Assembly: GCF_049723875.1 (NCBI RefSeq)
Contig: NZ_JBNAKN010000005.1
Span: forward strand, 15,112 to 39,111
Length of the DNA: 24,000 nt
Direction: 5' to 3'
Source of the DNA: Methanobacterium sp.
Lineage (GTDB): Archaea; Methanobacteriota; Methanobacteria; Methanobacteriales; Methanobacteriaceae
Position 1 is the first letter of the stretch; every line of letters starts with the position of its first letter. Made by a program: the position numbers and the translations under genes. A model generated the notes under the pieces. The model was not told the DNA's origin. It saw only the letters and a program-made list of their open reading frames with translations, and ran no database searches. This document shows positions 1-23,927 of the stretch, one piece after another.

Positions 1-1003
1 ATCTTGCATAAACAGATCTTGCAATATTAGGATCGTTAGTTCCTTTAATTATTGCTCTTCCATCTCGAAATACAGATATTTCATATTTTTCTGTCTTAAA
101 AAGCAAAATAAAATCGGCGCATTTAATGCTGCCTAAGTGTTCCAGGTTAGATGCAAGCTCTCTTAAATCCATATCTTTTGGATCTGCAGGAGTTATTTGA
201 ATTGCATTTCGACCGCAAAGAGAGGTAATAATTTCTCTATCTTCTGAGTTCAGATATTCATATTCTTCAAGGGAACAGCAGTTACATTCATCATTTTTTC
301 TGACGAGTATTTCATCCATTGAATGATTCCATGCATCATAAACTATAAGACGCCCATCCTGTTCATTTTCTGGCCTTGCTTCACCAAGAAGTATTCTTAT
401 AGCTTCTGTACTTGCCATCGATCCCATAATCACGGTTATGGTATTTAATACACCCATTGTATCACATGTTGGGAGCGAACCTGGTTTTGGAATATGTGGG
501 TAAAGACATCGAATACATGCAGCACCAGGTAAGATATTCATTGTCATTCCTGATGTTCCGATTGCACCAGTGTATATCCATGGAATTTCTTCTCGAACAC
601 ACACATCGTTTATGAGCATTCTTGTTAGGATGTTATCTGTCCCATCAAGAACTAAATCAACGTCTTTTATGATTTCTTCCACGTTAGTATGGTTTAAATC
701 TTTTACAATAGGTTCAACTTCAATAGCAGAGTTAATGAGTTTAAGTTTTTTGGTTGCAGCAACCGCTTTTGGTTCTCCAACATCAGTTTCATCAAATAAT
801 ACCTGTCTTTGTAAATTATTTAATTCAACAAAATCTCTATCTAAAATGGATATTTTACCAATTCCAGCACGTGCAAGATTATTTGCGGCGGCTGTTCCAA
901 GAGCTCCACATCCTACAATAAGAACATGGCTTTCTGAAAGTCTTTTTTGACCTTCTTCCCCAATGTTCTGTAATATTTCCTGTCGTGAGTATCTATTTTC
1001 CAT
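1..1003 (-). CDS. ThiF/MoeB/HesA-family E1-like adenylyltransferase (partial; 3' end runs off the left edge)
   Basis: My own minus-strand translation from the ATG at 1003..1001 reads MENRYSRQEILQNIGEEGQKRLSESHVLIVGCGALGTAAANNLARAGIGKISILDRDFVELNNLQRQ... and stays open to position 1. It has the RYSRQ motif, a GxGxxG Rossmann motif and a Cys cluster (CIRC...PTCD) typical of the family. A GGTGA sits 7 nt upstream of the ATG. It is missing from the ORF track because no stop lies inside the window; track ORF 570..950(+) is its antisense shadow. Confidence 0.8.
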   Translation of the reverse strand, partial: MENRYSRQEILQNIGEEGQKRLSESHVLIVGCGALGTAAANNLARAGIGKISILDRDFVELNNLQRQVLFDETDVGEPKAVAATKKLKLINSAIEVEPIVKDLNHTNVEEIIKDVDLVLDGTDNILTRMLINDVCVREEIPWIYTGAIGTSGMTMNILPGAACIRCLYPHIPKPGSLPTCDTMGVLNTITVIMGSMASTEAIRILLGEARPENEQDGRLIVYDAWNHSMDEILVRKNDECNCCSLEEYEYLNSEDREIITSLCGRNAIQITPADPKDMDLRELASNLEHLGSIKCADFILLFKTEKYEISVFRDGRAIIKGTNDPNIARSVYAR

Positions 1004-1145
1004 ATTTCAATCACCTGAAGTTTTGGGTCAATCCCTGTAAAAATTGAAAATATTTACGGTTGCGAAGCTCTGCTTCGTAAACATCAAAAATCTTCGATTT
1101 TTGATAGGATTGTCTGGAGTATCTATTTTCCATGTTATATTCACC
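981..1145. repeat. Hairpin array A1 flanked by an imperfect 35-nt direct repeat that duplicates the ThiF-like start codon region
   Basis: Direct repeats at 981..1015 and 1111..1145 match at 29/35 positions, with a 17-nt exact core gagtatctattttccat that includes the start codon. Between them are the stem-loops tgcgaagc-tct-gcttcgta (1061..1079) and atcaaaaatc-ttc-gatttttgat (1083..1105, 10-bp perfect stem). Confidence 0.85.
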
Positions 1146-1186
1146 AGATATGTAAGTTACTATATAAAATTTAATAAAAACAAAAA

Positions 1187-3185: not shown

Positions 3186-3361
3186 AACATGTGGATTAAA
3201 AATAAAAATAATTCTTTGATCCAAAATAGTTTAGATCATGCTACAGGTACATCTTACAATGCAATATACATTTCTTTAAAAGATGCATATCCTATTAAGG
3301 AAAATAAATCAGATAATAATACCAGATTAAAGTTTTTAATGCCTTTCGATCCAATTTAATT

Positions 3362-4171
3362 TTATTTACTCTTTTTAATTATCTCCTTTAATTCATTTAT
3401 TTCAGATAACATTTCATGACGCATATTTTCCATTTGCGCCTTCATTTCAGCCAAATTTTTAGCATGTTCATCATTAGATTCTTTTTCCATCATAATAGAT
3501 GATAGTGAAGCCGTTAACAAGCTCATAAAGAATACTCCCGCAATCATTATAATAGCACCGACCATTCGGCCGCCTACAGAATCAGGGCTTATATCTCCAT
3601 AACCTACAGTAGTTATCGTAACTACAACATACCATAGAGCATCATCCCAACTGTTAACCTCTCCATTTGAACCATTTTCCAATAAGAAGAAAGAAATTGT
3701 CCCAGCTCCAAAAATAAATAAAAATATAACTGCACCATGGACCAAATTAGTTTTCTTTAAAAACTCAAGAATATTTTTTTGTCCCTTTCTAAGGAGTATT
3801 AAAACCCTAACAAGCCTTACCAGCCTTAAGAATCTTATAAAACCCAAATAATCTGCAGCAATTAATATCAAGAAATCTACAGGTATCATTGCAACTATGT
3901 CAATCCAATTTTTACGTATATACTGTAGCTTGTTTTCTTCATTCCGCATTTTAACTACAAATTCCAAAAACAGTACGATACAAACAAAAAGATCAAAATC
4001 AATTATCACACCAACTGTCTGGGGAGGTATGTTAATAAAGCTCATCAAGATAATTAAAAATAAGTCTGAAATTATTAAAATAATTATAAATGCCTCTAAA
4101 ATCTGTTTAATTTGATCATTAGGCATTATTGTTCCTAAATATTGTTTGAGTTTTTGATTCATCCTATCCAA
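3362..4171 (-). CDS. Voltage-gated potassium channel (six-TM Kv type)
   Basis: It has the K+ selectivity filter TVGYGD, an S4-like voltage sensor RFLRLVRLVRVLILLRKG (Arg at every third position), multiple TM segments and a C-terminal coiled-coil tail. Confidence 0.85.
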   Translation of the reverse strand: MDRMNQKLKQYLGTIMPNDQIKQILEAFIIILIISDLFLIILMSFINIPPQTVGVIIDFDLFVCIVLFLEFVVKMRNEENKLQYIRKNWIDIVAMIPVDFLILIAADYLGFIRFLRLVRLVRVLILLRKGQKNILEFLKKTNLVHGAVIFLFIFGAGTISFFLLENGSNGEVNSWDDALWYVVVTITTVGYGDISPDSVGGRMVGAIIMIAGVFFMSLLTASLSSIMMEKESNDEHAKNLAEMKAQMENMRHEMLSEINELKEIIKKSK

Positions 4172-4485: not shown

Positions 4486-5745
4486 TTATGCATCATCTTT
4501 AGTTCTGACTGCACATAAGCTTTGATTTTGCAAATCATGTTTTTTAGGCTTTTCTATAGTCTTGAAAATACTTTTTGCATTCTCAATTAAGTTTTTATCA
4601 TCATTTTCAGCGGCATTTTTGATATTTCTTATGATATCACAGAAAATTTTATCCACTACAACCTGCGTGAGGTCTTCCACTATTTTTTCCTTGCCTTCAA
4701 TGTCTCCAAGCATTCTAAATGCTTTTTCAGTTTCATGAGACCTTATTTTTTCTGCATTTCTTCTTATATCTGAAATAAGAGATTCAACTTCAAGACGTTT
4801 TAATGATTTTTTCAGAAGTAACAGTTCTTCTTCAATGATTTTTTCGGCATCTTTAGCTTCAGATTCCCTTAATTCCCTGTTTTTATCGGCGATTCCCCTT
4901 AAATCATCTATATTAAATAATTTAACCCCAAGTTTTTTGACATCTTCCTCGACGTCTCTTGGATTTGCAATATCCACCATTACAAGTTTTTCCAGTTTTT
5001 CTGGTGAAACAGCATTTTTTATTTTTTCACAAGTTAAAATAGGGTGGGGCGCTCCAGTAGCACTTATTATAACATCAGCATCACTCATAGCTTCATCTAA
5101 CTTGTCAAAATGTATTGCATATCCACCAAGTTCTTTTGCAAGGTCTACTGCACGGTCATGAGTTCTATTAGCTACAACTATCGCTTTAAGATGTTTTTGA
5201 ACCAATGCTTTTGCAACGAGAGTTCCCATTTTTCCAGCACCAATTACAAGGACTTTTTTACATTTTAAATCCCCATGTACTGACTCTGCAAGTTCTACTG
5301 CTGCAGAACCTATTGAAATAGATCCTTTGTTAATATTAGTCTTTTTTCGAACTACCTGACCCACATGAATAGCCTTTGTAAATATGGTATCTAAAAGCTC
5401 TCCAGCATACCCATCATTGAGATGTTTCTTTCGGGCATCTTTTATCTGTCCCAGTATCTGATCTTCACCTATTATCATAGATTCCAATCCGCAGGAAAGC
5501 CTTAAAAGGTGATTTAATGCATGATCATCGGTTTCAACTACAAAATCAAGGAAATCAATATTATCAATATAACAATCATTTAAAACTAAGTAAAGTTCAG
5601 CACGGTTACATGTTTTCATCTGGAGATACTCACGTACGCGGCATTCATCCTTGATTTTCTCAAAGATTTCACCCATCTGAGAAGTAGACTTCTCCATTGT
5701 ACATATATCCGCCGTATTATGGTCGATTCTGATATTTAGAATCAT
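4486..5745 (-). CDS. hemA: Glutamyl-tRNA reductase
   Basis: [12 protein letters not shown]..., the [10 protein letters not shown] active-site Cys region, the NADPH motif [10 protein letters not shown] and a C-terminal coiled-coil dimerisation domain are all typical. I place the start at the ATG at 5745, preceded by a GGGGG-containing RBS; the track start at 5793 adds 16 unlikely residues. Confidence 0.9.
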
Positions 5746-5815
5746 TTTACGCCCCCAACTAACATTTAAATTATTAAAACCACTGAAAATCAATGGAATT
5801 TTGCAAATTATAGCA

Positions 5816-6430
5816 TTAATTACTTAATTGCTGTTCTATATATTTTTTAGCATCTTCTAAATTTCCCTGCCTTAGATATTCCTGTATGTTTTTATCATTT
5901 AAAATTTTATATAAATAATCTCTACGTTTTTTTTGATCATTCATATTTTCTTTTAAAATGTTTCGTGTGAAATTCTGGAGTTCTAACTGTAAAACATCTT
6001 CTTCAAGTATCACTTTTTGTATTCTTTTTCTTAACTCTTTTGCCATAAGAGGGCTTTTTCCACCAGTAAATATACAAAATTGCACATCCCCTATAGAAAA
6101 AGAAGAAGGAATAATTAAATTACCTTCATCTGGCTGATCGGCCCGATTTAAAAGCTTTCCTTTGGCTAATTTTGCCACGCGCTCATTTAATTCATGATCT
6201 CCAGTAGATATTACCACAAGATCAGACCAATTAATCCATTTTTCAACTTCATCTAAAGGTTTGAAAGTAGCTCCAAGATCAATTAGATCATTTAAAATTT
6301 CTTTATTTATAATAGTAACATTGGCCCCTGATTCAAGGAATCTTCGGGCTCTTCGAGTTCCAACCTCTCCTGCACCAACAATTAAAACATTTTTGTTTTC
6401 CATTTGCAGGAAAAGAGGTGTCCAACCCAT
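5816..6430 (-). CDS. sirC: Precorrin-2 dehydrogenase / sirohydrochlorin ferrochelatase (CysG N-terminal-domain type)
   Basis: The N-terminus is typical of the family: [41 protein letters not shown]. It is about 200 aa and sits immediately upstream of hemA in the same orientation. Confidence 0.8.
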
Positions 6431-6706
6431 ATTTAGATCTCCGATTCATAATTGAAATTTAGTTGACTTAACCTTTTCCCTAAAAGATTAATATTGTCGA
6501 AAGTTATGGACTTTCTGACCTGAAAAATCAGTGATTTTTCAGGGGTTTTTTGATCAAGCCTTTTTTCTCTGAAAAAAGCCCTTGAAAATCTACGATTTTC
6601 GGGGCGCCAAAAATTCAAAGAATTTTTGAGCGGTTGATGCTGTAGAGATGTCCAACCCATATTTAGATCTCCAATTCATAATTAAAATTTAATTGGCTTA
6701 ACCTTT
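6414..6706. repeat. Hairpin array A2 flanked by a 63-nt direct repeat that duplicates the sirC start codon and leader
   Basis: Direct repeats 6414..6476 and 6644..6706 match at 58/63 positions, and all 5 mismatches are G/A transitions. Stem-loops lie between them: cctgaaaaatca-g-tgatttttcagg (6519..6543), cttttttc-tct-gaaaaaag (6560..6578), gaaaatc-tac-gattttc (6584..6600) and caaaaattc-aaa-gaatttttg (6608..6628). Confidence 0.9.
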
Positions 6707-6755
6707 AAGATTAGACCAATTTAGAGTAAAAATAAAATATATTTAAAGTCTTAAA

Positions 6756-7235
6756 TTATTTGCTTGATTCTAAACTTTTCATCTTCAAAATCTTTGCAGC
6801 CATCCTTAAATCGTTTCCACATTCTTGAAGAATGTTATTTGCTTCTTCTTCTGGAATATCAAAAGCATCAGCAAGTGCCTTAACTTCTTCCTGTGATGAT
6901 TCAGATACGCCTACAAGCTCTTCAGATAATTGTTTTTTAAGTTCCATATATTCATCAGAGCTCATGTTTATCCTTCTCATTACCATATCCCTTAAAGGAC
7001 ATGGTTTGGATGGTTTACAGCACCAGACAAGAGAACCAAAACAGGTTCCTTCTCCTTGACCTAATCTTGTTTTTTTACCAAATTCTTCTTTTTTTGCTAT
7101 ATAATCTTGAGAACTGAGATTTGCATCTTCAAGTGCATATATAATTGGGCAAGGTTTAACTGGCGGACAACAAAATGCCAACGCTCTTTTGTCCCCTCCC
7201 CTGCATACGTGTGATGGTGAATCTTCCCATACCAT
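6756..7235 (-). CDS. Small cysteine-rich protein with two CC-P-x-KPCP motifs and a UBA-like C-terminal helical domain (possibly a methanogen-specific marker protein)
   Basis: An internal duplication is visible: CRGG...[16 protein letters not shown] and [21 protein letters not shown]. The C-terminal [26 protein letters not shown] resembles the UBA domain of archaeal NAC/EF-Ts. It lies directly upstream of atwA. I cannot confirm a family name without a search. Confidence 0.6.
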
Positions 7236-7322
7236 TATATTCCTCCATTATAAATCTAGTATTTTAACTGAAAATCTAATTTTCAGTAATTAAAAATAAT
7301 TTAAATCTGAAAAAAATAAAAT

Positions 7323-9780: not shown

Positions 9781-10548
9781 TTAATCCACTAATTTTTCAT
9801 TCATAACATGGACAAGATCGTAGGTGACTCCACCTCTTATCTCTTCCAGAGCTAGATCTGCCAAATTAGCAGCTTTTTCAGCCGTAGGTGCTTTTCCAAT
9901 ACCTGCTTTAAGCGCTATATTGGTTTCATCTTCAATTTCTTCAACTATTTTTAAGAGTCCTTCAGGGCTAAGTCCATTACATGGAGACATAAAATTATCT
10001 CCCCCTATAAAGAAGACAAGTGAACCTTTTTCAATTAACTTTTTCATTAAGAAATGTTGAACTCTATTTACAATAAAAGAAGTATCATAAGCCGGGATTA
10101 TATCAGTTAAAGAATCTGTAATTCCATTTATATCTATATGGGCAATTTGAACAAAACTGTCATCTTTATTTACAAGACCATCTATAGCCAGAACTTCTTT
10201 TCGCTCTTCAGATTGTGCTCCACCATAATTTTGAAGAGCTGCTGTAGCATCTCTTTGAGCTTCATAAGGAGTTTCAGCTGCTCCAACACCCATACTTATG
10301 GTTATTGGATATCTATTGCCTATTGATTTCTGGATTCTCAAATGATCCTCCACATCTACATTATTAGTAATTGCAAGCATGTTATCAAAGCGGGTGAAGA
10401 AAACAAGTCCACCTTTAGCAGCAAATTGTCTTTGAATATCAGCATAAAGCTCTGCTTGCAGGATTTGAAGATCTGCTTCAGCCCTTGGAGTCGGAGTAAC
10501 AGTCCATGGGCCGTAATTATCAATTTGAATTAAAGTCATCTGTATCAT
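9781..10548 (-). CDS. gch3: GTP cyclohydrolase III
   Basis: The N-terminus [22 protein letters not shown] is the hallmark of the archaeal GCH III family (MJ0145 type). It is about 255 aa. Its ATG overlaps the cofD stop as ATGA (10548..10545), which suggests translational coupling. Confidence 0.85.
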
Positions 10549-11450
10549 AAAATTTCACCCAAAATAATTCTGGCTAACCTCACTTTATCATTGATGGTCT
10601 TCATGTTTGTGTTTGTTATAACGACCTTTGATATTAGTTTTTCTATTTTTTTCTCAGATTCTATGTCCTCAACATCTATGATAAACTTGTCCATAAATTC
10701 CTTATAAATTGTTGCAACACCTTCACACGATACTTCGTATCCCATTGCATTCATAAACTTTGCTGCGGGACCACTTACAGGATTTCCACCTATTATTGGA
10801 GATACTGCAACAACATAAGAGTTTTTAAGAGCTTTTCTTACTCCATTCATTGAGATTATTGGCCCTATGGATGTTATCGGATTAGATGGCCCTATTATGA
10901 CCATATCTGAATCTTCAATAGTACTTATTACATCATCTGAAGGTTCAACATCTGCATATATTATATCTTCCACTTCAGGCTGTGCCTTTTTTCCAACCAG
11001 AAATTCGTGGAAGCTCATTTCCCCTTCATCTGTTATAATCTTGATATTAGATTGCTCATCACTCATAGGAATGATCTTTGATTTAACACCTAATTTTTTT
11101 CTTTGAATATCTACGACTTCAGAAAGAGGATACTTCTCCATTAGCATAGTCTTTTGTATCTTAATGGCGCGATCTTCATCCCCAATTCTTAAAATCTCAT
11201 TATAACCCATTTCTTTTAAAGTTTCATGGGTTGTAAATGTATCTTTGTCAATACCGTACCATGTGTTTTCATTTATAATTCCTGCGAGAGTATACATCAC
11301 AGTATCTATATCTGGTGCTATATAGTTTCCTGATATATATGTATTTTCTACTGTGTTTACAATTATATTGAGATCTTCGGGATCGGTTGTCTGGACTATC
11401 CCCTGAATTAATTTTGGAGTTCCAGTTCCTCCAGAAAGTATTGTTATCAT
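10545..11450 (-). CDS. cofD: 2-phospho-L-lactate transferase (F420 biosynthesis)
   Basis: It has the characteristic CofD N-terminus [18 protein letters not shown], is about 300 aa, and neighbours cofE. Confidence 0.9.
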
Positions 11451-11708
11451 ATAGCTCGTTTTTAAAGTTTGTTTTGTAGTTAATGATTTTAATGAAGATT
11501 AAAGCATACACGTTTTATTTATAGTTAAATACTCACTATTTTTTGGATCATATTAATCTTTTGAAAATCACAGCCCACAGGTTTTTAGGATTTGATGCTT
11601 TAATTCATGCTATTCAAAACAGTGTTTTTAAGAGTTTCAGTTTCATTAGTGAGTATTTATCCATATAACCTGTCTTTAAAGTTTGTTTGTATTAACGTTT
11701 TTATGATG
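11448..11708. repeat. Element A3: imperfect ~47-nt direct repeat duplicating the cofD start codon and leader, enclosing a ~165-nt insert
   Basis: 11448..11495 (catatagctcgtttttaaagtttgttttgtagttaatgattttaatga) and 11662..11708 (catataacctgtctttaaagtttgtttgtattaacgtttttatgatg) are roughly 80% identical with small indels and share a 14-nt exact core, tttaaagtttgttt. The insert has a 12-bp inverted repeat aaatactcacta (11527..11538) / tagtgagtattt (11647..11658) and weaker A/T-tract hairpins such as caaaac-agt-gttttt. Confidence 0.7.
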
Positions 11709-16564: not shown

Positions 16565-17203
<639 letters not shown>

Positions 17204-17289
17204 GTCTTACTTCTCATGGTAGAACTCCACACATAATAAATAAATAATTTTTTTAAATATTTTAGAAAATATGTAATATTTTCTAACTC

Positions 17290-17413
17290 TTACAAATCTT
17301 TGATTTTTAATGCTCACAAAACATAAGGTTTTATGGCCGTAAAAACTTTGTTTTTTCATGTAGAAAAAGCGTTGCTTTTCCAACTCCCAAAAAATTCTAC
17401 AAATTTTTTGAGG
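17290..17413. repeat. Hairpin array A5 (about five modules) in a divergent intergenic region
   Basis: The modules are tacaaatc-ttt-gattttta, acaaaac-ataag-gttttat, aaaaac-ttt-gttttt, gaaaagc-gtt-gcttttc (~17362..17381) and caaaaaatt-ctac-aattttttg (~17387..17411). I found no flanking direct repeat. Confidence 0.7.
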
Positions 17414-17720: not shown

Positions 17721-17836
17721 TCAATTCATGAAAGACATGTTTCTATATTTTTTATACAAACAATTTTTATAATAATAAGCATAAAAAGTCTGCAGTAAAT
17801 CCATTGATAATATTCATTAAAAAATTTGTGATTCTT

Positions 17837-18508
17837 ATGTTCGTTAAAGGAACTTTAAAAAAGGCAGGATTATTTTTAACTTTAGCAGTCTTACCCTTTT
17901 TATTTGGATATTTCTTAGTAAGCTTAATCCTATTTTCAATTCTAGCATTTATTATGCAGTTTTTCAGAGATCCAAATAGACGTGTACCTCAGGAAAAAGG
18001 AGTTGTAGTAGCTCCTGCAGATGGAAGAGTACTCAAAGGACAAATTGACAAGATAGAGATAGTTGAATACAACGATCCATTAATGAAGCATATATTAAAA
18101 AAAGGGGAAAAAGGAGTTCGTATAAGTACATTCATGTCTCCATTTGATGTCCACGTGAATAGATCTCCTGTTTCTGGAAAAATTGTAAAGACCAAACACT
18201 TTCCCGGAAAATTTAAATTAGCGTTTAAAGATGCGGAAACTGAAACTGAAAAAGAAAAAAATTTAATAGTAATTGACTCACAGTACGGAAAAATTGGAGT
18301 AGTTCAAATTGCAGGTTTTGTAGCAAGGCGTATAGTCCAATATGTTAATGTAGGTGACAAAGTTGAAATAGGAGAAAGATTAGGGATGATAAAATTTGGA
18401 TCTAGAGTAGATCTAATTGTACCCTATGAAAAATGTAAATTAATGGTTAAAGAAGGTCAAAAACCAAAAGCAGCAGAAACAATAATGGCTAAAATAATAA
18501 ATAGTTAA
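17837..18508 (+). CDS. psd: Phosphatidylserine (archaetidylserine) decarboxylase proenzyme, short type
   Basis: It has an N-terminal TM, FRDPNR, and the pyruvoyl-forming cleavage motif in MIKFGSRVDLIVP. The ATG at 17837 is preferred over the TTG at 17804. It neighbours pssA. Confidence 0.8.
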   Translation: MFVKGTLKKAGLFLTLAVLPFLFGYFLVSLILFSILAFIMQFFRDPNRRVPQEKGVVVAPADGRVLKGQIDKIEIVEYNDPLMKHILKKGEKGVRISTFMSPFDVHVNRSPVSGKIVKTKHFPGKFKLAFKDAETETEKEKNLIVIDSQYGKIGVVQIAGFVARRIVQYVNVGDKVEIGERLGMIKFGSRVDLIVPYEKCKLMVKEGQKPKAAETIMAKIINS

Positions 18509-21815: not shown

Positions 21816-22550
21816 ATGAAGTTATCAACACTTTTTATCATAGCAGGGATGGTAATCATCTCCCTTTATTTTATGGTAGAAGTAAGTTTCTATGCAACAA
21901 CAGAGAATGTTGTTCTAAATAAATCAGATACTCCTTTTCTTGAAATACCCAAAATAAGTGTTGATCAAAATATCAACAACAAATCCGTAAATTACGGAGT
22001 GTATTATGAACCCGAATCTGCAAAACCCGGTTATGGAACTGTGGTACTAGCAGGACACAGAACATTTTACAGTTCTCCTTTCTTAAATCTAGATAAACTA
22101 AAAACTGGAGATAATATAACTGTATCATGGCCAGAAATAGGAAATGTCCAGTACACAGTAGTAAGATCATATATTGTTCCTGCATCATACCAGCTATCTT
22201 TAGATCAGGGCAAAACTCTTATTCTGTATACATGTTATCCTCTGGGATCATCCAAAGAAAGATTAATTATACAGGCAAATCAAACTAAAATAACCCCATT
22301 TGCCTATTCAAAAGCAGCAAATTCGAATAACGGGAAAAAAGATTTCCCATATGCTCCGTTATTAATAGCTGCCTTTTTAGGAATAGGTTTAGTCTTAAGC
22401 TATTTATATCCTGTAAAAGATGATAAAATATTTATTTTCATAACTGCAGTTGCCCTCACACTGTTTTTATTATATGGGTACCTGTTTCCAGTTCCAGGAG
22501 ATCAAATATCATCACAGATATCCAATTTGAGCGATATATTTGGAGGTTGA
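21816..22550 (+). CDS. Sortase-family cysteine transpeptidase, membrane anchored (N-terminal TM plus two C-terminal TMs)
   Basis: LEIPKISVDQNI...PGYGTVVLAGHRTF supplies the His, TLILYTCYP supplies the TLxTC-type Cys, and ERLIIQA supplies the Arg, completing the sortase H-C-R triad in canonical order. The TM segments are FIIAGMVIISLYFMV, LLIAAFLGIGLVLSYLY and IFIFITAVALTLFLLYGYLF. Confidence 0.8.
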   Translation: MKLSTLFIIAGMVIISLYFMVEVSFYATTENVVLNKSDTPFLEIPKISVDQNINNKSVNYGVYYEPESAKPGYGTVVLAGHRTFYSSPFLNLDKLKTGDNITVSWPEIGNVQYTVVRSYIVPASYQLSLDQGKTLILYTCYPLGSSKERLIIQANQTKITPFAYSKAANSNNGKKDFPYAPLLIAAFLGIGLVLSYLYPVKDDKIFIFITAVALTLFLLYGYLFPVPGDQISSQISNLSDIFGG

Positions 22551-22551
22551 A

Positions 22552-22597
22552 GAAAATCTCTTCGAGATTTTCGAAACCCCAAAAACTTTGTTTTTGG
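22552..22597. repeat. Hairpin array A6 (two modules) immediately after the sortase stop
   Basis: The two modules are gaaaatctc-ttc-gagattttc (22552..22572, 9-bp perfect stem) and ccaaaaac-ttt-gtttttgg (22579..22597, 8-bp perfect stem). Confidence 0.8.
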
Positions 22598-22667
22598 AGG
22601 TTAAATCCAATATATACGCCAAATTTTATAATCAGTACCACCCAAATATAAAACCAGGTAGATTTTA

Positions 22668-23039
22668 ATGGATGTCGAAGATAAATATTTCAAAAATATT
22701 TCAAGCAGAGAACGAGCAATTTTTGAAGGTGCAATTACAATGGGCGCTTTATTCCATCAGTTTATTGGAACACCTGTAAATTCAGAAAGTGCAGAAATGC
22801 TTGAAAAATCAATAAAAAGAGCAATGGAACTTCAACCATGCATTGAAAAAGTCGAAGTGAAAATAGACAGGAAAATGCTTGAAGAAGCTAAAAGTGAATT
22901 TGATTATGTATCTCTAAACGGAGATATGATAGATGTAAGAGTAGTTTCAACATATAATAACAAAAAAGCGGTTTTAAGGATGGAATATATCAAAGAGTTA
23001 AAGTATCCTTTGATGTATGTGGAATATATTGATGAATAA
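22668..23039 (+). CDS. mptD: Probable archaeal dihydroneopterin aldolase (MptD-like, methanopterin biosynthesis)
   Basis: It is about 120 aa, with ERAIFEGAITMGALFHQFIGTPV near the N-terminus. From memory this matches the conserved ERAIFE-G-x-LGAL-HQF-GTP block of the MJ0408/MptD family. I did not verify this by search. Confidence 0.5.
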   Translation: MDVEDKYFKNISSRERAIFEGAITMGALFHQFIGTPVNSESAEMLEKSIKRAMELQPCIEKVEVKIDRKMLEEAKSEFDYVSLNGDMIDVRVVSTYNNKKAVLRMEYIKELKYPLMYVEYIDE

Positions 23040-23438
23040 TTAATAAATTACAGAATGTTTTTGATCCTATCAAACCTTCGGTTTGATTGTTTACGAAATT
23101 ACATTTCGTAACCGGAAAAATTGGAAATTTTTCCATGCCCAAAAATCAGAGATTTTCGACAGCTATTGAAAATCTTGATTTTCAATGCCGCAAAACTACG
23201 TTTCGCCGGCTTTTTTATAAAAAGCCAGCAAAATTTATAATTTTGTGGTGTGCAAAAATTATAAATTTTTGCAGTTACGAAACGCGGTTTAGTAAACGTT
23301 AAAAATCTATGATTTTTAACATCCTGCAAAATCAAGTGTTTTGCGGCCCACAAAATCCTTGATTTTGTTGGGGCTGTTGAGGAGTTAAAGTATCTTTGAT
23401 GTATGTTAAAAATATTGATGAGTAAACAAATTACAGAA
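22995..23438. repeat. Hairpin array A7: 13 consecutive stem-loops flanked by a ~60-nt imperfect direct repeat that duplicates the 3' end and stop codon of the MptD-like gene
   Basis: Direct repeats: 22995..23055 (gagttaaagtatcctttgatgtatgtggaatatattgatgaataattaataaattacagaa) and 23382..23438 (gagttaaagtatc-tttgatgtatgttaaaaatattgatgagtaa---acaaattacagaa). The stem-loops span 23069..23368. Perfect 9-10 bp examples are at 23091..23111, 23114..23134, 23165..23186, 23251..23273 and 23298..23320. Confidence 0.9.
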
Positions 23439-23470: not shown

Positions 23471-23788
23471 ATGGATAGTTTAAAATTATATGATGACTTG
23501 AAATTTGCTATAAGATGTGTAGACATCTGGGAAAAGTTAAAATCAACTGATGCTGAGATGGAAGAAGTTCTTAAGCATGAAGCAAATAAAAAAAGTCTAG
23601 ATCAAAGCGCCCTATTTTGCCAGCCTTTGCAAGATTATTTAGAGATGCTAATCGCCATGATTCACAATGAGAGCGGAGAATGGTTTTTTTATGTGGATAT
23701 TGCAGGTGTTTTATACGATTTTGTTTCAACAGATGAACTTTCAGTATATAAAACTGAATCAGGTTATTGTGTCTGTTTCAAAAAATAA
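23471..23788 (+). CDS. Small acidic hypothetical protein
   Basis: A 105-codon ORF with coding-like composition and no TM or signal peptide. I recognise no motif. Confidence 0.4.
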   Translation: MDSLKLYDDLKFAIRCVDIWEKLKSTDAEMEEVLKHEANKKSLDQSALFCQPLQDYLEMLIAMIHNESGEWFFYVDIAGVLYDFVSTDELSVYKTESGYCVCFKK

Positions 23789-23884: not shown

Positions 23885-23927
23885 GTCAAAGCTGAAAGTT
23901 TTGACGCAGCAAACACCAAGTGTTTGC
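23885..23927. repeat. Hairpin array A8 (two modules)
   Basis: The two modules are gtcaaagc-tgaaa-gttttgac (23885..23906, one G-T position) and gcaaacac-caa-gtgtttgc (23909..23927, 8-bp perfect stem). Confidence 0.65.

Follow-up and report, generated by a model that had tools for sequence, protein, structure and literature searches.

A hairpin-array insertion with target duplication at the start of sirC in Methanobacterium, and similar insertions at other gene ends

We examined a 24-kb stretch of DNA from a Methanobacterium sp. (contig NZ_JBNAKN010000005.1, positions 15,112 to 39,111; "the window" below means this whole stretch), in which the start of the gene sirC is present twice, with an array of short hairpins between the two copies. 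sirC (5816..6430) encodes a protein of the precorrin-2 dehydrogenase / sirohydrochlorin ferrochelatase family (PF13241, E = 2e-26; TIGR01470, 93 bits versus a cut-off of 62). Downstream of it is hemA, for glutamyl-tRNA reductase (4486..5793; TIGR01035, E = 1.5e-108), whose product is 93% identical to HemA of Methanobacterium sp. MBAC-LM and 70-93% identical to that of other relatives. Upstream is the gene for methanogenesis marker 9 (6756..7235; TIGR03277, E = 2.8e-56). These genes, both copies of the sirC start, and a 75-codon open reading frame (ORF) that links the copies are read on the minus strand. The relatives of HemA place the window within Methanobacterium, and the SirC, DHNA, and 75-codon ORF products match NCBI records of a Methanobacterium sp. 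(161.5-kb contig) at 100% identity. Loci from relatives are designated L001, L002, and so on.

The two starts lie within a direct repeat of 63 nt (6414-6476 and 6644-6706). An initial annotation of this DNA had reported that the copies match at 58 of 63 positions and differ only by G/A transitions, and direct comparison bears this out (all five mismatches are G/A on the plus strand; local alignment of the flanks gives z = 32.8 against shuffled sequences). Each copy has a Shine-Dalgarno (SD) sequence, GGAGAT (6437-6442 in the copy proximal to sirC and 6667-6672 in the distal copy), and an ATG (6428-6430 and 6658-6660) at the identical spacing GGAGAT-N8-ATG. The codons that follow read MGWTPL in the proximal copy and MGWTSL in the distal one, again as first described. 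The duplication exceeds the 63-nt core and extends upstream to 6490 and 6713, across a 7-nt gap. The proximal or working copy (6414..6490, minus strand) includes the leader, the SD, the stop codon of the upstream ORF (TAA, 6433-6435), the sirC ATG, and the first codons. The distal copy (6644..6713, minus strand) includes the sirC leader, the SD, the ATG, and 5-6 codons. In L003, the duplication reaches codon 9 (MGWTPLFLQ); the distal copy in the window has since lost 6 nt. The distal SD and ATG are laid out like the working start of sirC and like the single start of relatives that have no insert, and as judged from sequence they are an exact relic of the working start.

Between the copies is a 167-nt array of hairpin modules (6477..6643, minus strand), with sense-strand modules at 6605-6631, 6579-6604, 6560-6578, 6519-6543, and 6496-6518. 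At least four clean stem-loops had been claimed, and we found four perfect ones, at 6519-6543 (11 bp), 6560-6578 (8 bp), 6584-6600 (7 bp), and 6608-6628 (9 bp), as well as a fifth, weaker one (6 bp) inside 6496-6518. There is also an outer or "founder" stem, in which ATCAACC (6632-6638) pairs with GGCTTGAT (6553-6560). The RNA from 6400-6760 (minus strand) has a predicted folding energy of -85.5 kcal/mol (z = -3.55), and the sense strand of the array has three runs of T5-T6. The breakpoint of the insertion falls within the loop of a small native hairpin in the 5' coding region of sirC (6396..6414, minus strand; TTTTCC-tgcaaat-GGAAAA, read from the sequence). Across the whole window, there was no match to Rfam 15 at the gathering score (6300-6850 gave only chance-level matches, with E = 0.1-4), and no tRNAs were found. 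The hairpin at 6584-6600 and its orthologue in L017 (3224-3244) have 3-nt loops that are reverse complements of each other (GTA on the sense strand of the window, TAC in L017); loop flips of that kind are expected from strand switching or from recombination within a palindrome.

Archaeal promoters are of the TATA/BRE type, and archaeal termination relies on oligo-T tracts. The sole good candidate for an archaeal promoter between the marker-9 stop codon and sirC is a TATA-like box, TTTAAATATA (6738..6747, minus strand), which is upstream of the distal copy. This box is kept in L001-L004, which also carry the insert, and in L032-L034, which do not have the insert, it directly precedes the lone leader of sirC. 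Because the putative promoter is upstream of the distal copy and because the insert-free alleles have the same unit of box, leader, and ATG, the distal ATG is very probably on the mRNA. We infer that the mRNA would include the relic start, the array, and sirC-hemA.

The relic ATG opens a frame of 75 codons (6433..6660, minus strand) that crosses the array and ends at a TAA (6435-6433), 2 nt before the ATG of sirC (6430). This frame is just as the initial annotation described it. That annotation also cautioned that the modules might be poor in stop codons, and the caution was warranted: the arrays have 0.048 stops per codon, versus 0.065 across the window as a whole and 0.07 predicted by base composition. 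The TA dinucleotide is depleted 2-4 fold in the arrays, several of which are wholly open in one frame on one strand or the other. Arrays at other loci have open frames of 61-93 codons, on both strands and with no start context. When we resampled 116 real modules behind the real distal start, the frame was open with P = 0.075 (P = 0.017 for shuffled sequence), and it was open and ended at the stop codon at -5 with P = 0.021. Furthermore, no frame passes through the proximal leader uninterrupted: as read from the sequence, the three frames meet stops at -5, -18, and -31, so any open frame will end near the sirC ATG.

The 75-amino-acid ORF has been deposited at NCBI and UniRef as a hypothetical protein (P0241). 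It has no match in Pfam or NCBIfam, and among 5.8 billion proteins there are only two related peptides, namely P0241 itself (from the window) and P0242 (of the L003 type). The deposited protein is an annotation artefact of stop-poor arrays.

The fate of the frame varies among the loci that have the insert (L002, which contains Ns, was left out of this comparison). The frame reaches the stop at -5 in the window and also in L003, where it again has 75 codons and crosses a different set of modules. On the contig that carries P0126 (JGI sample 3300075153, 23,657 nt), from a lineage in which SirC shares 88.6% identity with that of the window, a 109-amino-acid ORF ends 2 nt before sirC, according to gene calls only. 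In L001, the frame is shifted and has 27 codons; its stop, at -24, leaves a gap of 21 nt to the ATG. The frames of L004 and L017 end early, inside the first hairpin, after 19 and 16 codons respectively. A hand alignment of the window with L003 shows indels of 6, 54, 51, and 3 nt, each of them in frame. We rejected these indels as independent proof of selection: each shared segment is open in one frame only, and since both ORFs are open, the indels have to be in frame.

The arrangement of copy, array, and copy is found at sirC in the window and in L001-L004, with a shared left junction (...CCTACAG / AATCAACC...). In L001 and L002, merely ~20-30 nt separate the two copies. The breakpoint ...CCTACAG / AATCAACCGCTCGAAAATT... 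is common to the window, L001-L004, and L017. L017 (SirC 80% identical) has an array of ~340 nt at the identical junction, and L018 (SirC 74% identical) has a decayed relic from which the distal ATG is gone. The module content of the array differs in every relative.

Other relatives have no insert at sirC (L032, L033, L034, and L035/36), and their SirC proteins are 88-89% identical to the window's. In this clade, at least 22 SirC clusters have 85% identity or more. These loci have the marker-9 stop codon, TTTAAATATA, one leader, and the ATG, in an intergenic region of 97 nt with no array. The initial annotation had suggested a comparison with sirC upstream regions that lack the insert. This comparison recovers the same box, leader, and ATG in five genomes; it also shows that the insert is dispensable at sirC. 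In a neighbour-joining tree from 1.9 kb of sirC and hemA, the five insert-free genomes form one tight clade that is nested among the carriers, which indicates an old insert that was cleanly lost on one occasion. On the simplest account, a single old insertion duplicated the target, and recombination between the copies later removed it precisely, once.

Between genomes, the distal copies are 73-94% identical (leaving out the truncated distal copy of L004), versus 86-98% for the proximal copies. In other words, the relic copies diverge faster than the working copies, which points to relaxed constraint on the relic. We considered concerted evolution of the two copies and rejected it, as the copies group by position (proximal with proximal) and not by genome. 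In outgroups, the stop codon of the marker-9 gene lies 1-4 nt from the ATG of sirC (TAA-G-ATG in L007 and L009, TAG-G-ATG in L010, and TAG-CAGG-ATG in L019); the gap is 22 nt in L006.

The same architecture, with copies of a gene start or stop on either side of an array, is present in at least three further cases in the window. At the start of a ThiF-family gene (2-1003), a 38-nt duplication of the leader, the ATG, and 7 codons surrounds a 92-nt array with 3 hairpins (981..1148, minus strand; z = 10.8). This array begins with ATCCTATCAAA. L004 and L005 have clean empty sites here (one copy and no array), and L001 is filled with different middle modules. The insert at the start of cofD (the gene is at 10545-11450 and the insert at 11417..11703, minus strand) is older and decayed. 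Its 76-nt duplication covers the leader, the ATG, and ~11 codons, with 76% identity between the copies, and the hairpins of its 140-nt spacer have decayed; it is absent from L005, L006, L014, and L007. The third case is at the 3' end of the DHNA gene (22668-23039), where a ~61-nt duplication, made up of the last ~42 nt of the gene, the stop codon, and ~16 nt beyond, flanks a 326-nt array with ~13 hairpins (22995..23438, plus strand; z = 17.8). Its breakpoint is in the loop of a native hairpin (AATTACAG...CTGTAATT) that has T6 after it. The locus is empty in L026-L029, which show the native hairpin and T6 that the insert interrupted. In L024 (Methanobacterium sp. MBAC-LM; 3325-3700), the end of the DHNA gene is present three times, with one hairpin and a six-hairpin array splitting the copies. 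At sirC, MBAC-LM, a cultured strain, carries the minimal insert, and it has large arrays elsewhere. Empty sites are thus known in relatives for the sirC, ThiF-like, cofD, and DHNA loci. The initial annotation missed this origin of the structure at sirC, which is a hairpin-array insertion with target duplication and one of several in the window.

Outside of the window, the 3' end of the marker-9 gene has been duplicated independently in L005 (46 nt), and the array between the copies has modules in common with those at sirC. Across ~377 kb of DNA from Methanobacteriaceae, many local direct repeats (28 nt or longer) have hairpin arrays between their copies, as do nearly all of those with over 85% identity. 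The duplications at different loci are ~15-23, 35-38, 46, 61-70, or 63-100 nt long, and the smallest inserts consist of one 25-30-nt hairpin with a duplication of ~70 nt (L024).

A second type of array is built from two-hairpin units (GTTGAAG-stem-CGAAACCCC-stem-GGAGG) and occurs between the sortase and DHNA genes and also upstream of the marker-9 gene. In the window (22542-22600, plus strand), such a unit joins the last codons of the sortase gene via 8 nt of microhomology (TTTGGAGG), without a target duplication. The sortase stop is GGAGGTTGA with the unit and GGAGGCTAA in the insert-free L024. The unit has been amplified to ~560 nt in L028 (9363-9935) and is also found in L026 (9754-9935), and stems are exchanged between units like cassettes.

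At the SD of the marker-9 gene, arrays are inserted exactly at the SD in L001 (8418-8668), L004 (3425-3535), L006 (4681-4870), and L017 (2150-2500), and they are absent from the window (the equivalent site is ~7236-7260) and from L003. The last hairpin of these arrays forms between the SD (GGAGG) and a CCTC upstream of it, and this pairing could hide the ribosome-binding site. A lone 9-bp hairpin upstream of the marker-9 gene (7267-7287; ACTGAAAAT cta ATTTTCAGT) is kept in all close relatives, unlike the variable arrays. Elsewhere in the window, several similar hairpins are at 17262-17410, in the intergenic region between the divergent ORFs 16565-17203 (minus) and 17804-18508 (plus), and no flanking duplication was detected there. 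An isolated hairpin downstream of the ORF at 23471-23788 (23909-23927; GCAAACAC caa GTGTTTGC) has the form CAAACAC...GTGTTTG, a kind of module also seen in arrays at unrelated loci (L001, L003, L005, and L028).

Overall, there are 35 hairpins of this kind in the window, and 13 of them are within two arrays. From the window and the related loci, we surveyed 72 hairpins in 15 arrays. Stems are 5-11 bp and loops are mostly 3 nt. The A-rich arm comes first in 59 of the 72 hairpins and the T-rich arm in 9; this bias is alike on both strands, so there is a T-run in the 3' arm whichever way the array is transcribed. The stems differ from module to module yet stay perfectly complementary, and what the modules share is only a scaffold (a GC clamp, an A-run, a 3-nt loop, and a T-run). 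In the last hairpins, one of the arms is taken from native sequence (as where a CCTC pairs with the SD GGAGG). On the sense strand, stem mismatches are C.A in 8 cases versus G.U in 2. These counts do not favour selection on the sense RNA, but they are too small to draw a conclusion.

The sirC, marker-9, and DHNA arrays all open with a hairpin of the form ATCAACC...GGTTGAT, and ATCCTATCAAA is found exactly at two array starts in the window. Two candidate end motifs were rejected: ATCCTRTCAAA is exact at merely two array starts, and GTTGAG/TTGAG, at the end of the DHNA array, proved to be target sequence. We could not make out terminal inverted repeats by inspection (the left-end ATCAACC or ATCCTATCAAA has no inverted counterpart on the right), and the right ends are not conserved. 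When we compared the arrays by BLAST to the window and 21 loci (~330 kb), we found orthologous arrays and module matches of 13-21 nt only, and no near-identical dispersed copies. The 24-kb window encodes no transposase and no RAYT gene; all of its genes are housekeeping genes. Two arrays that we compared to phage and plasmid collections had no BLAST match. We found no description of such hairpin arrays in the literature on Methanobacterium, archaea, or methanogens.

Among described repeats, the arrays can be compared with REP/BIME elements, which are also imperfect palindromes of 20-35 nt in head-to-tail clusters, intergenic and at gene boundaries, with copy numbers that vary between close relatives and with potential effects on transcript ends and stability. 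However, REP/BIME elements are bacterial, are thought to be moved by RAYT transposases, and leave no target duplication, whereas these arrays are archaeal and are flanked by duplications of 15-100 nt. Also, each hairpin here has its own sequence, with no conserved head such as GTAG, and the hairpins surveyed do not form a single sequence family. Like miniature inverted-repeat transposable elements, the arrays show presence/absence polymorphism with clean empty sites (at sirC and at the ThiF-like, cofD, and DHNA loci), but unlike them they have no terminal inverted repeats, no short target duplication of fixed length, and no near-identical dispersed copies in the ~330 kb compared. The hairpin repeats of organelles (the repetitive hairpin elements of sponge mitochondria, and the double-hairpin elements and GC clusters of fungal mitochondrial DNA) similarly invade intergenic regions of compact, AT-rich genomes, vary in structure by lineage, and cause size differences between close relatives (PMC2800124). 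Their hosts are organelles, however, they bear no sequence relationship to the arrays, and no long duplications of gene ends have been reported for them.

The reading that we prefer, with moderate confidence, is that the doubled start of sirC is an insertion scar, in which hairpin modules were inserted with duplication of the target, with copy choice as the favoured mechanism, and the relic ORF is a by-product. In an ancestral Methanobacterium, short A/T-rich hairpin modules would have been inserted ~27-30 nt into the coding sequence of sirC. The duplicated stretch would originally have been ~80-100 nt (the leader, the SD, the ATG, and 9-10 codons), which would have restored sirC in full on the downstream side of the insert. 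Later, the array would have gained and lost single modules, giving a different set in every relative. The upstream copy would be a leftover start site behind the sole recognisable promoter, and the length of the junk peptide would be set by the first stop within the stop-poor modules. In the window genome, the frame runs without interruption for 75 codons, up to a stop 2 nt short of the sirC ATG, a distance at which ribosomes can reinitiate; such a hand-over would be a side effect of the insertion and not the reason for the structure.

As the relic start has a native SD context, it should be translated, and the relic ORF is probably made into a junk peptide. Termination-reinitiation in archaea works at short gaps between stop and start, and gaps of ~20 nt abolish coupling (PMC10666635). 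Since the gap of 2 nt is within the range for reinitiation, some hand-over of ribosomes from the relic ORF to sirC is likely in the window genome and is geometrically plausible. Ribosomes that cross the array could melt the hairpins and shield the three T5-T6 runs. In its 2-nt gap, and in having the downstream SD inside the end of the upstream ORF, the arrangement is like the termination-reinitiation described for Haloferax volcanii and E. coli (PMC6728339, PMC10666635). It differs in that the upstream ORF is a duplicated start fused to hairpin DNA, rather than a gene, and that it is kept in some carriers and lost in others; coupling here would be predicted from the layout. We call the ORF a side effect because it is truncated early in two carriers and because the insert is absent from the sister clade, and the sequences compared do not show it to be a conserved device.

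For the insertion step, which is the least secure part of this account, we favour copy choice, a switch of template while DNA is being replicated or repaired. In this scheme, a founder hairpin (GATCAACC...GGTTGATC) would be copied in, and synthesis would then resume upstream on the original template and re-copy the target. We favour this mechanism because the duplications vary in length, because there are no terminal inverted repeats, and because inserts of a single hairpin come with a 70-nt duplication. It is also favoured by breakpoints in the loops of native hairpins (at sirC and DHNA), by the native arms that the last hairpins borrow, by joints at microhomologies, and by arms that are perfectly complementary despite their differences in sequence. 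In fork stalling and template switching / microhomology-mediated break-induced replication (FoSTeS/MMBIR) and in quasipalindrome correction, a templated insert plus re-copying of the target gives a copy-insert-copy structure of variable length with microhomology, and strand switching perfects inverted repeats. Template-switch insertions are described as rare mutations, mainly from eukaryotes and E. coli; they are not known to give rise, recurrently and across a lineage, to hairpin arrays at gene boundaries.

Three observations weigh against an undirected scar with a passive ORF. First, the insert predates the split from L017 and L018 and is still in place, even though direct repeats of 60-100 nt should favour deletion. 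Second, three lineages keep an ORF that crosses different modules and stops exactly 2 nt before sirC. This exceeds casual expectation (P ~0.02-0.07 per lineage if the lineages are independent, and they are not fully so), and some selection for read-through is possible; that the ORF is under selection in some lineages seems to us less likely than not. Third, the left-end hairpin with ATCAACC at three unrelated loci fits a defined mobile element better than it fits undirected template switching.

We tentatively entertain an undescribed hairpin-generating process in this clade. A founder palindrome (GATCAACC...GGTTGATC) with a target duplication of ~15-100 nt would grow into arrays whose structure is kept while their sequence varies, and the ORF at sirC would have been co-opted to carry ribosomes across the array, which would restore coupling. 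If this is true, then insertions into start or stop codons would survive since the duplication rebuilds the gene end that was hit, and spare start sites, altered stop codons, and new upstream ORFs would arise.

Doubtful, in our view, is the stronger form of the proposal in the initial annotation, by which the relic ORF is selected and translated, melts the hairpins, prevents premature termination at the T-runs, and reinitiates at sirC, with its frame kept by selection. Parts of the proposal hold up: the promoter-like box is upstream of the distal copy, whose context is identical to that of the working start in insert-free relatives; the stop is 2 nt before the ATG, with the SD within the end of the ORF, and coupling needs such short distances (PMC10666635); and three lineages have an array-spanning ORF to the identical stop despite different modules. 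In addition, the three T5-T6 runs on the sense strand could terminate archaeal RNA polymerase if they were untranslated, and the outgroups with a marker-9 stop 1-4 nt from the sirC ATG suggest that sirC was once translationally coupled. But the frame ends after 19 codons in L004, after 16 in L017, and 21 nt short of sirC in L001; L018 is without the ATG; the chance of an open frame is as high as P = 0.075; and the sister clade is wholly without the insert. The in-frame indels between the window and L003 (6, 54, 51, and 3 nt) might seem to favour selection, but they are automatic once both ORFs are open. Arrays at other loci have open frames of 61-93 codons, on both strands and with no start context, and the relic copies evolve faster than the working copies.

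Unlikely, and bearing on the insertion step only, is a non-autonomous origin, in which a transposase acting in trans would move the arrays and leave long and variable (staggered-cut) target duplications. The model for this would be the IS1549/IS1634 elements, which have variable direct repeats of 8-514 bp and whose family is common in, and preferentially from, Euryarchaeota; the mechanism behind these long repeats is unknown (PMC2266710). As with those elements, the target repeats here (~15-100 nt) are far longer than usual and vary between copies (PMC2266710), and the left ends offer some hint of a defined element (the ATCAACC hairpin at three loci, and ATCCTATCAAA exactly at two array starts in the window). 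IS1549/IS1634 elements are 1.5-2 kb, however, with a DDE transposase and terminal inverted repeats, whereas the inserts here are non-coding hairpins of 25-350 nt. Inspection gave no terminal inverted repeats and no conserved right ends; inserts are as small as one 25-30-nt hairpin with a ~70-nt duplication (L024); the window and 21 loci (~330 kb) have no near-identical dispersed copies; the window encodes no transposase; and the second type of array is joined through 8 nt of microhomology (TTTGGAGG) and not by a duplication.

Least probable is that the array is a selected gene-boundary element (a bidirectional terminator, an insulator, or an RNA-stability element) that separates sirC-hemA from the marker-9 gene, with the duplication merely allowing its placement: the position of arrays at gene starts and stops, the A-first order in 59 of 72 hairpins with a 3'-arm T-run on both strands, the three sense-strand T-runs of at least 5 at sirC, the replacement of a terminator-like native hairpin plus T6 at DHNA, and the retention of hairpin structure while sequence varies would all suit it, but at every locus examined some close relatives have an array and others do not, the modules turn over fast, many arrays are in 5' leaders or between the SD and the gene, where a terminator would be harmful, and stem mismatches are mostly C.A (8) and not the G.U (2) that would be tolerable under selection on the RNA.

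Under the insertion-scar reading, what looked like a decoy start at sirC has an ordinary origin. sirC and hemA feed the synthesis of tetrapyrrole cofactors, including F430, in a methanogen, and these genes work with or without the insert. The locus by itself is a variant of known hairpin-repeat and insertion phenomena, and it is the long duplications of gene ends across the whole class of arrays that are worth following. At least four array insertions within 24 kb have duplications that are far longer than normal transposon footprints, and each of them rebuilt a gene start or stop. For annotation, there is the concern that a junk ORF has already been deposited as a hypothetical protein. If such insertions are genome-wide, then these methanogens would provide a natural system for studying the origin of long target duplications, which is unexplained even for IS1549/IS1634, and an example of palindromes that are kept perfect while their sequences drift. 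The insertions would also have fed new upstream ORFs, altered stop codons, and SD-sequestering hairpins into archaeal gene regulation.

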